From: Schmidtea polychroa
Taxonomy: Eukaryota
Length of the DNA: 64,000 bases
Assembly: GCA_044892525.1 (NCBI GenBank)
Contig: CM097885.1
Span: 30,196,001 to 30,260,000, forward strand
Direction of reading: 5' to 3'
Positions 21,322 to 21,759 of the stretch are shown piece by piece. The notes below the pieces were generated by a model. It saw only the letters and a list, made by a program, of their open reading frames with translations, ran no database searches and was not told the origin of the DNA. Each line of letters starts with the position of its first letter. Within the stretch, counting starts at the first letter, position 1. The position numbers and the translations under genes were made by a program.

Positions 21322-21759
21322 TTAGAAATCGACCAATGAAATTATCTCATTTCGAACATTGTCAACAAATTCTCTATACTCCAAATTTCTCAACCCCAAC
21401 ATGACAACCTTTCCACTAGCAAACACGTTGACACATATAGGGTTATATTTTAATAGTCTTAGTACCGGAAACAATTCCGGTTCAAACATACAATCACATT
21501 TTTTCGACATGTTATATAGATTGATACTATGTCCCATATCCATAGTAACGGTAATTGATTGGATTATAATATTATTTATTCGATATTGTAATTTATTAAT
21601 ATCCAAAGGTTTCTTACATCCCATGATTCGACATTTACCAGTCTTGAAAAATATTATCGGATATTTCCCGCTTCTATCGATAATTTGCTGAGGTTTCCCT
21701 GGTGGGAACCTCATATTCGATACATCAAAATTTCCTCGATAATTTATATTTGCTAACAT
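21322..21759 (-). CDS. TATA-binding protein (TBP)-like protein, 145 aa
   Basis: Two TBP-type repeats: IIFFKTGKCRIMG and IQSITVTMD...INL...FEPELFP...VNVFASGKVVMLG. Confidence 0.85.
   Translation of the reverse strand: MLANINYRGNFDVSNMRFPPGKPQQIIDRSGKYPIIFFKTGKCRIMGCKKPLDINKLQYRINNIIIQSITVTMDMGHSINLYNMSKKCDCMFEPELFPVLRLLKYNPICVNVFASGKVVMLGLRNLEYREFVDNVRNEIISLVDF

Follow-up and report, generated by a model that had tools for sequence, protein, structure and literature searches.

Polintons have no RNA polymerase of their own; how they time their capsid and packaging genes is an open question, and particle formation by animal Polintons is debated. In a 64,000 nt stretch of Schmidtea polychroa DNA, hereafter the window, one such element was predicted from the letters of the sequence to encode a two-repeat TATA-binding protein (TBP) core, which would serve either as a late-transcription factor or as a decoy for TFIIB. 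Does the element carry a TBP of its own, and which promoters could such a protein read?

A Polinton with a TBP-like gene next to the packaging ATPase

The gene resides in an 18.8 kb element (17168-35991) that ends in AGTAGT and is flanked by the 6 bp target duplication CATTAT. Terminal inverted repeats with AG ends, the 6 bp duplication and a core set of protein-primed B-family DNA polymerase (pPolB), retroviral-type integrase, A32 ATPase and cysteine protease identify it as a Polinton/Maverick, as had been predicted (Table 1). The polymerase was identified via relatives: the ORF in the window shares 58% identity with the polymerase of L124, a region that passes PF03175, and 33% with that of L040 (L numbers denote the loci compared). 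The rve domain is below its Pfam cut-off in the integrase of the window copy. Conserved ORFs of 406 aa and 355 aa occupy the places expected of capsid genes with no Pfam or PDB sequence match, and the capsid labels are putative.

The TBP-like start lies 103 nt from the ATPase Met at 21863, and the two genes are divergent. An in-frame ATG at 21773 before the ATPase is open in the window copy but not in the sister copies L002 and L115. By Pfam, no TFIIB-like gene was found among the element's ORFs of at least 100 aa, and none of the 21 PF00382 matches in the same genome falls within the window. The small neighboring ORFs, searched as possible partner activators of the kind that accompany herpesvirus TBP mimics, gave no Pfam match.

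Other features were recorded along the way. The (TAT)n expansion in the integrase gene (23492-23621) encodes a run of >40 Ile, which is common to the sister L115, while L111 and L030 align without it. A conserved 136-aa ORF (20064-20474), for which neither Pfam nor Atlas gave a family, accompanies the TBP-like gene in L021, L023, L024, L025 and the subfamilies of this genome; its C-terminal strands may resemble single-strand DNA-binding OB folds, and CCAAT, TATAAAA and TCATT lie upstream of it. The element also contains a weak Bcl-2-like ORF (18958-19269, E 0.029) and a RING-finger ORF (34103-34447). Outside the Polinton, positions 1-13393 form a perfect 6215 nt inverted repeat with a 963 nt loop.

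Table 1. Features of the element and instances of the TATA variant, in window positions.
Feature	Positions	Strand	Remarks
Left terminal inverted repeat	17168..17330	+	begins AGTAGT; CATTAT duplication at 17162-17167
TBP-like gene, 145 aa	21322..21759	-	short form, predicted to be without N-lobe helices H1 and H2; ORF, Pfam, model, structural alignment
TATA-like box TATAAAG	21785..21791	-	ordinary type; 32 nt before TBP-like start; candidate host-type early promoter
TATAAACA box	21826..21833	+	37 nt before ATPase Met; non-coding DNA
A32-like packaging ATPase	21863..22489	+	Pfam Pox_A32, E 2e-06; start is the Met common to relatives
TATAAACA box	22475..22482	+	33 nt before 177-aa ORF
Basic 177-aa ORF	22508..23041	+	conserved in relatives; no Pfam match
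TATAAACA box	22958..22965	+	87 nt before 75-aa ORF
CATAAACA box	23037..23044	+	66 nt before integrase start
75-aa ORF	23045..23272	+	overlaps integrase start
Retroviral-type integrase with chromodomain	23103..24254	+	Pfam/ORF; contains in-frame (TAT)n expansion
ATAAACA after G	24181..24187	+	43 nt before putative minor capsid Met; inside integrase coding sequence; weakest instance
Putative minor capsid protein	24200..25267	+	label from position and size alone; second Met 24224; no Pfam match
TATAAACA box	25159..25166	+	101 nt before 124-aa ORF; kept at synonymous codon positions
124-aa ORF	25260..25634	+	conserved in relatives
TATAAACA box	25589..25596	+	42 nt before putative major capsid start; held at synonymous sites
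Putative major capsid protein, 406 aa	25631..26851	+	label from position, size and conservation; without match in Pfam or PDB
Adenovirus-type cysteine protease	26796..27263	+	Pfam Peptidase_C5, E 4.5e-06
TATAAACA box	27726..27733	+	82 nt before 61-aa ORF at 27808
Protein-primed B-family DNA polymerase ORF	29829..33842	+	identified via L124 and L040 relatives
Right terminal inverted repeat	35826..35991	-	96% match; CATTAT duplication at 35992-35997

A predicted TBP saddle with a remodeled DNA face

The Pfam TBP match of the 145-aa product covers residues 64-125 (E 1.4e-14), the first repeat going undetected in this sequence search, and its PDB sequence matches are TBPs, from archaea to human. 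A model predicted from a 54-sequence alignment reached a mean pLDDT of 95.3. Foldseek returned 44 PDB matches at E≤0.001, and every row among the matches listed is a TBP-containing entry. In the structural alignment, residues 1-145 of the model align across yeast TBP 66-240 (2.5 Å, Z 13.1), so that both repeats are present. The two-repeat TBP-saddle fold of the protein, as originally proposed, is thus confirmed at the level of a predicted model. The whole 145 aa align to the TBP core, with no extra domains.

Repeat 1 of the model is made up of strands, residues 1-80 contain no helix, and the segments that would hold H1 and H2 measure 13 and 19 residues in the alignment versus 24 and 32 in plant TBP. 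Helices H1 and H2 of the N-lobe are absent from the model and were probably lost, judging from this one prediction and the alignment gaps. The basic cluster of the N-lobe H2, which forms the TFIIA, TAF1, Mot1 and Brf surface of cellular TBP/TRF, was not found in the 145-aa protein; the accessible text of PMC7221094 describes a basic cluster including three N-lobe H2 positions as the contacts of these factors. For the long-form protein of L040, a single-sequence model gave a pLDDT of 33.6, and the helices assigned to the long form rest on alignment.

Residues were counted in 128 near-full-length family sequences (84 short forms, 18 long forms, the rest intermediate) taken from 208 proteins after setting aside fragments, TBPs of canonical appearance and rows in which the N-terminal strand is missing. 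The first DNA-intercalating Phe is missing, as had been suspected for the shortened first repeat: the aligned column is Pro in 123 of the 128, and the six commonest residues of the preceding column are non-aromatic. The other three of the four DNA-kinking Phe are kept (F38 in 126/128, F97 in 128/128, F113 in 127/128). The EPELF stirrup predicted from the window is found at residues 93-97, and its acidic, TFIIB-facing residues are conserved in sequence (E93 in 115/128, E95 in 126/128).

The DNA face carries substitutions that recur throughout the family, namely N6 (105 of 128), R44 (125), M46 (128), S68 (108), T70 (111), R101 (103), C109 (108) and N111 (127), which correspond to yeast V71, V122, T124, N159, V161, I194, V203 and L205 in a numbering derived in part by way of plant TBP in the alignment. 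In Table 1 of PMC12529657, V71, V122, T124, N159, V161 and L205 are listed as DNA contacts of TBP. According to the available part of PMC1636458, the altered-specificity trio of TBPm3 consists of I194, V203 and L205, and the N-lobe of TBP reads the 3′ half of the box. The N-lobe is the most altered part of the TBP-like protein.

Conservation within the genome and in a wider family

The genome (781 Mb, 1012 contigs) holds at least 150 intact copies of the TBP-like gene, full length, 98-100% identical and stop-free, as scored for the 150 best scorers of 4164 first-look candidates. Three further subfamilies of this genome, making four in total, carry the gene at 57-60% identity and head-to-head with the ATPase; the copy in L125 stops early, at 130 aa. 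In four of the six pairs of own-genome subfamilies the dN/dS of the TBP-like gene was 0.11-0.25, the remaining two pairs being saturated; for comparison, that of the putative capsid was 0.09-0.22 among the subfamilies of the same genome. The TBP-like gene is under purifying selection. The genome was also searched with distant capsids and PF03175: three of the four regions followed up have a TBP-like gene beside the ATPase, and neither gene was found in the stretches fetched of the fourth (L127-L129).

The subfamilies differ in further respects. L115 is >94% identical to the window in most virion-block proteins, ~55% in the putative minor capsid protein (24400-24980) and 42-60% in the polymerase (29829-33842), a pattern that suggests module exchange between subfamilies. 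One subfamily has the putative minor capsid gene in two tandem copies (L125 2498-4586; L128 2292-4314). The host itself encodes at least five TBP-family paralogues and at least 13 copies of an intronless, divergent TFIIB paralogue of ~300 aa with few database relatives (L140 4685-5596, L141 4575-5486; G000 C1 ~23.85-24.19 Mb and C3 ~38.2-39.1 Mb), some of which are spaced ~7.9 kb.

Beyond this genome, 61 proteins matched in a 90%-clustered set, and 104 cluster representatives did so at E≤1e-10. We kept 80 of 128 metagenome loci, 14 of which have Polinton core genes nearby; among the 23 closest loci such genes are present at 10, most other close ones being contigs of 1-3 kb. The Atlas search named the TBP family with uninformative taxa, and scans of viral contigs returned no relatives for the TBP-like protein or the putative capsid, each searched as a sequence and as an alignment, or for the ATPase, searched as an alignment. 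The TBP-like gene is divergent from the ATPase in L042, co-directional with it in L021, L025, L030, L039 and L040, and placed after the protease in L027, L029 and L031. The divergent arrangement at ~100 bp, one part of the original prediction, therefore holds here but not as a family trait: head-to-head placement characterizes the subfamilies of this genome and L042.

Our conclusions on descent rest on a tree of 38 rows, a hand-picked subset without L082 and L086 that was midpoint-rooted on a short alignment; a 91-row version exists as a quick tree alone. Sixteen family rows fall on one side (support 100/99), nine short forms are nested within the family (98/96), and the TBP of the Polinton L065, which has canonical residues, is sister to it (97/84). 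Grouping with five host paralogues was rejected by the AU test both for the own-genome subfamilies (p-AU 1e-82) and for the whole family (p-AU 0.005). On this tree, the Polinton TBP-like family is a single clade separate from the host TBP paralogues.

Two of the compared loci carry additional genes. In L065, whose TBP keeps the first Phe, a two-domain PC4 coactivator-like gene lies close upstream of the canonical-looking TBP (1302-1790; 2165-2728), which may reflect the capture of two general Pol II factors by a Polinton. The long-form element L040 has KilA-N and phospholipase A2-like ORFs (7142-7999 and 9086-9484).

An oriented TATA variant precedes the virion-block genes

In the window, a TATA variant, (T/C)ATAAACA, precedes six of the seven virion-block genes in the orientation of transcription, ~30 to 110 nt before the ATG; the exception is the protease. 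Upstream of virion-block starts, picked by hand from homology and ORF lists (two were entered a few bases off), ATAAAC was the top 6-mer in the window (6/6, with the boxless protease omitted), in L030 (6/6) and in L040 (6/7), and ranked third in L027 (3/4). L040 has a GC content of 41% and a putative capsid of just ~27% identity, yet (C/T)ATAAAC occurs there 16 times in sense and 0 in antisense, with CATAAAC at 10 and 0. Across nine blocks (44 kb), TATAAAC was counted 50 times in sense and 3 in antisense against 7.6 expected, and TATAAAA 10 times in sense and 25 in antisense against 24.3 expected.

Part of the boxes lie in coding sequence. In eight related elements, the Ile-Asn codons at two coding box sites are ATA-AAC in 14 of 14 cases, as opposed to 7 of 65 Ile-Asn pairs distant from starts and to none of the 11 others close to them; the box is held at synonymous sites. 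Some coding instances sit where the amino acids favor the box (24181). Stray instances of TATAAAC number one inside the ORF of the polymerase and three on the element's minus strand; those of the minus strand that were checked lead into no long ORF.

The box occurs 31-49 nt before the ATPase Met in all 10 loci with this type of TBP and in neither of the two with other types. Upstream of the TBP-like starts it was found within 120 nt in 3 of 22, and a TATA-like word stands 20-70 nt before 10 of the 22 genes. The TBP-like protein of L086 differs in its saddle, and this element has ATAAAC before 0 of 9 starts and ATGCAAA before 5 of 9; L065 has ATAAAC before 1 of 6 starts. These two other-type elements give a hint that saddle type co-varies with the box. 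The comparison covers Polintons with a TBP-like gene, so that common descent could explain why box and gene are found together; the loci are related, and the contrast draws on two elements of other type. In L086, ATGCAAA lies 10-46 nt before five virion-side starts (9681, 9293, 6677, 3172 and 1765), and the pattern is present in L082 and L084 too; ATGCAAA is a candidate for a second saddle-box pair or for an octamer-factor site.

Several observations concern single genes. The phospholipase A2-like ORF of L040 has an upstream ATAAAC box, as does each of the tandem putative minor capsid copies in L125. The apparent start of the protease is ATG 26879, followed by a GTAAGT...AG stretch of ~37 nt that resembles a short intron (26847-26920), and TATAAAT replaces the C7 box ~32 nt upstream of this ATG; the same layout recurs at the matching place in two other subfamilies (L111, L130). 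Contigs of presumed RNA from four runs cover parts of the TBP-like gene and carry no start, strand or level information. PIWI knock-down data in PMC8532177 show de-repression of Polintons. A loose end lying 27 nt past the ATPase box, apparently a transcript 5′ end, was left out of account because its letters resemble a library adapter and barcode.

A proposed late-gene factor and the competing explanations

We propose, with a probability of roughly 0.65, that the TBP-like protein is a Polinton late-gene factor that reads (T/C)ATAAACA and recruits host TFIIB and Pol II. The computed support consists of the fold, the residue pattern, selection, the separate clade, and the position, strand bias and conservation of the motif; from these we infer the functional steps. 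The protein would be made early from a host-type promoter, and its remodeled saddle would bind the minor groove of (T/C)ATAAACA. The kept acidic stirrup would then bring in host TFIIB, and with it host Pol II, at the genes for packaging, integrase and the putative capsids. If the N-lobe helices are indeed lost, most of the TFIIA, TAF1, Mot1/BTAF1 and Brf surface went with them, and the protein should act outside TFIID and escape eviction. Variable spacing between box and ATG and a protease without a box speak against this reading. If it is true, the purified protein would prefer TATAAACA over TATAAAAG and scrambled DNA. Of the two functions originally offered, the late factor is independently supported by the TATA variant, which is conserved and oriented, upstream of virion-block genes; the decoy is the weaker one.

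A wider scenario, which we put forward tentatively and would sooner doubt than adopt, is that animal Polintons took up a TBP in the distant past and developed a promoter code private to them, with a late box for each lineage-specific saddle: (T/C)ATAAACA in this family, ATGCAAA in elements like L086. In its short form the protein would then be a minimal, single-protein late switch that works via host TFIIB and Pol II and that TFIID, TFIIA and Mot1 could not bind. Integrated elements would run a staged viral program, and a natural orthogonal TBP-promoter pair would be at hand.

Among the alternatives to a late-gene factor, the one that survives best, although we consider it unlikely, is that the box is a weak TATA for host TBP or a paralogue, that late timing follows from template number, and that the element's protein acts elsewhere or assists. 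The box is one base off TATAAA(A/T), the host has its several TBP-family paralogues to offer, and a complex of a host-type TBP with a C(-25) box has been solved (title of PDB 1qn3); host TBP can bind such a box, which keeps this alternative alive. According to the accessible part of PMC10005294, C at position 7 is rare in plant TATA boxes (0.01), and TATAAACG gave 27% activity in plant cells. This residual activity favors a host reader, while the rarity and the reduction in that one assay suit a private signal. Against a host reader stand the strict C at position 7 together with the depletion of TATAAAA on the same strand, the many L040 boxes that start with C and would make a poor host box (CATAAAC 10/0), the near-invariance of the altered saddle residues, and the lack of the box before the ATPase in the two elements with other TBP types.

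It is improbable that the protein acts as a decoy for TFIIB, or as a dominant-negative form, and so dampens transcription by host Pol II, antiviral genes included. Such a role would fit the combination of a kept stirrup (E95 in 126/128) with changes at one Phe and at several DNA contacts. Invariance, however, is as high in the DNA-facing columns as in the stirrup, and a pure decoy would have no use for that; the contact of TBP with TFIIB occurs on bent DNA, as stated in the part of PMC10005294 available to us; and a matching box is present in the element.

The motif itself might be no core promoter but a forkhead-type site or a polyadenylation-like signal of the upstream gene, an explanation to which we give a very small chance. 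A tight gene block makes the start of one gene the end of another, and the motif resembles AATAAA. ATAAACA also fits the forkhead consensus. Both readings were rejected on sibling-word counts and strand bias: in the nine blocks the forkhead siblings are unenriched (GTAAACA 7/4 with 6.4 expected; ATAAATA 15/15 with 17.4 expected), and ATAAACA is strictly oriented (60 sense, 3 antisense). Moreover, the box precedes the ATPase also in elements in which the adjacent upstream gene points away (window, L109, L125, L130).

Slightly less probable still is a DNA-bending protein for replication, integration or packaging rather than transcription. The gene often lies beside the conserved 136-aa ORF and adjoins the ATPase, but an acidic TFIIB stirrup would be superfluous for bending, and the box was found in neither terminal repeat. 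A decaying, recently captured fragment of host TBP, suggested by the length below that of TBP and the missing Phe, has practically no chance, being refuted by stop-free copies (150 of the 150 scored, the best scorers), dN/dS of 0.11-0.25, the family clade (100/99) and the AU test (1e-82 and 0.005). The objections by which the original prediction could have fallen, namely no TBP fold or a degenerate host insertion absent from sister copies and free of purifying selection, are thus answered, and the late-gene factor remains our preferred reading.

Comparison with known systems

VLTF3-like factors are a different protein family, not known to have a TBP fold. Like the TBP-like gene, they are putative late-transcription genes of small integrating DNA viruses, being carried by some polintoviruses (PMC11131425, in the main text). 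A Polinton TBP family or its box was found undescribed in our literature search, which covered sources other than preprint supplements, figures, Repbase and subscription journals. TBP, TATA, TFIID and promoters go without mention in the main texts of PMC11131425, PMC11161782, 10.1101/2023.08.22.554363, 10.64898/2026.06.19.733378 and 10.64898/2026.10.13.758929, as do TATA, TBP and promoters in that of PMC10175614. The view that TBP is not a standard Polinton gene agrees with this search but has to be tempered by one label in related viruses: the Fig. 5 legend of Starrett et al., 2021 (PMC8502044; preprint 10.1101/697771) names a gene 'similar to TATA binding proteins' in MELD viruses, which have adintovirus-like polymerases. 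Unlike the present analysis, that paper, as far as its legend and accessible text go, gives the label without analysis, family survey or promoter; one of its supplements has no mention of TBP.

The TBP-like proteins of Nucleocytoviricota are likewise viral proteins of TBP fold (BFVD matches, best E 4e-08), and giant-virus TBPs share the loss of the N-lobe regulator signature (PMC7221094, in the part available). The same source describes nearly all giant-virus TBPs as accompanied by a viral TFIIB, with one stirrup position ~40% conserved; in contrast, the Polinton stirrup is conserved and the element is without a TFIIB gene. With cellular TBP/TRF (PF00352), the protein shares the two-repeat saddle (Z 13, 2.4-2.5 Å over 145 residues), EPELF and three Phe. 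It differs from cellular TBP in a core shorter by ~30 residues, in the lack of H1 and H2 in repeat 1, in its remodeled DNA face and in forming a separate clade; where the TBP family has four intercalating Phe, it has three, the first being lost family-wide.

The closest parallel is with the TBP mimics of herpesviruses (KSHV ORF24, EBV BcRF1, HCMV UL87), which, according to the accessible parts of PMC6541308 and PMC12529657, also combine a viral TBP fold with a one-base TATA variant before structural genes. Host Pol II is used by these viruses and would be used by the Polinton as well, and the mimics have polar replacements at the saddle positions V122, T124, V161 and L205, as in the Polinton protein (PMC12529657, in part). 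The available text of PMC12529657 describes ORF24 as a protein of 752 aa with all four Phe that makes its own contact with Pol II and depends on five further viral proteins, and one of its section headings states that the ORF24 model cannot be reconciled with a direct binding of TFIIB. The Polinton protein, unlike ORF24, has 145 aa, is short of one Phe, retains the stirrup and carries no additional domains; it shows nothing of the large herpesvirus architecture, in which an N-terminal domain for Pol II binding is joined to a C-terminal DNA domain, and the top motif before its virion-block genes is ATAAAC rather than the herpesvirus late-promoter motif TATT. The TBP-like gene is a real, conserved Polinton gene and viral TBP mimicry in a new form, with a testable promoter partner. 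If the late-gene reading is true, an 18-kb element has independently invented the late-gene trick of herpesviruses, and its protein provides a natural experiment that asks which surfaces of TBP are dispensable for Pol II initiation.
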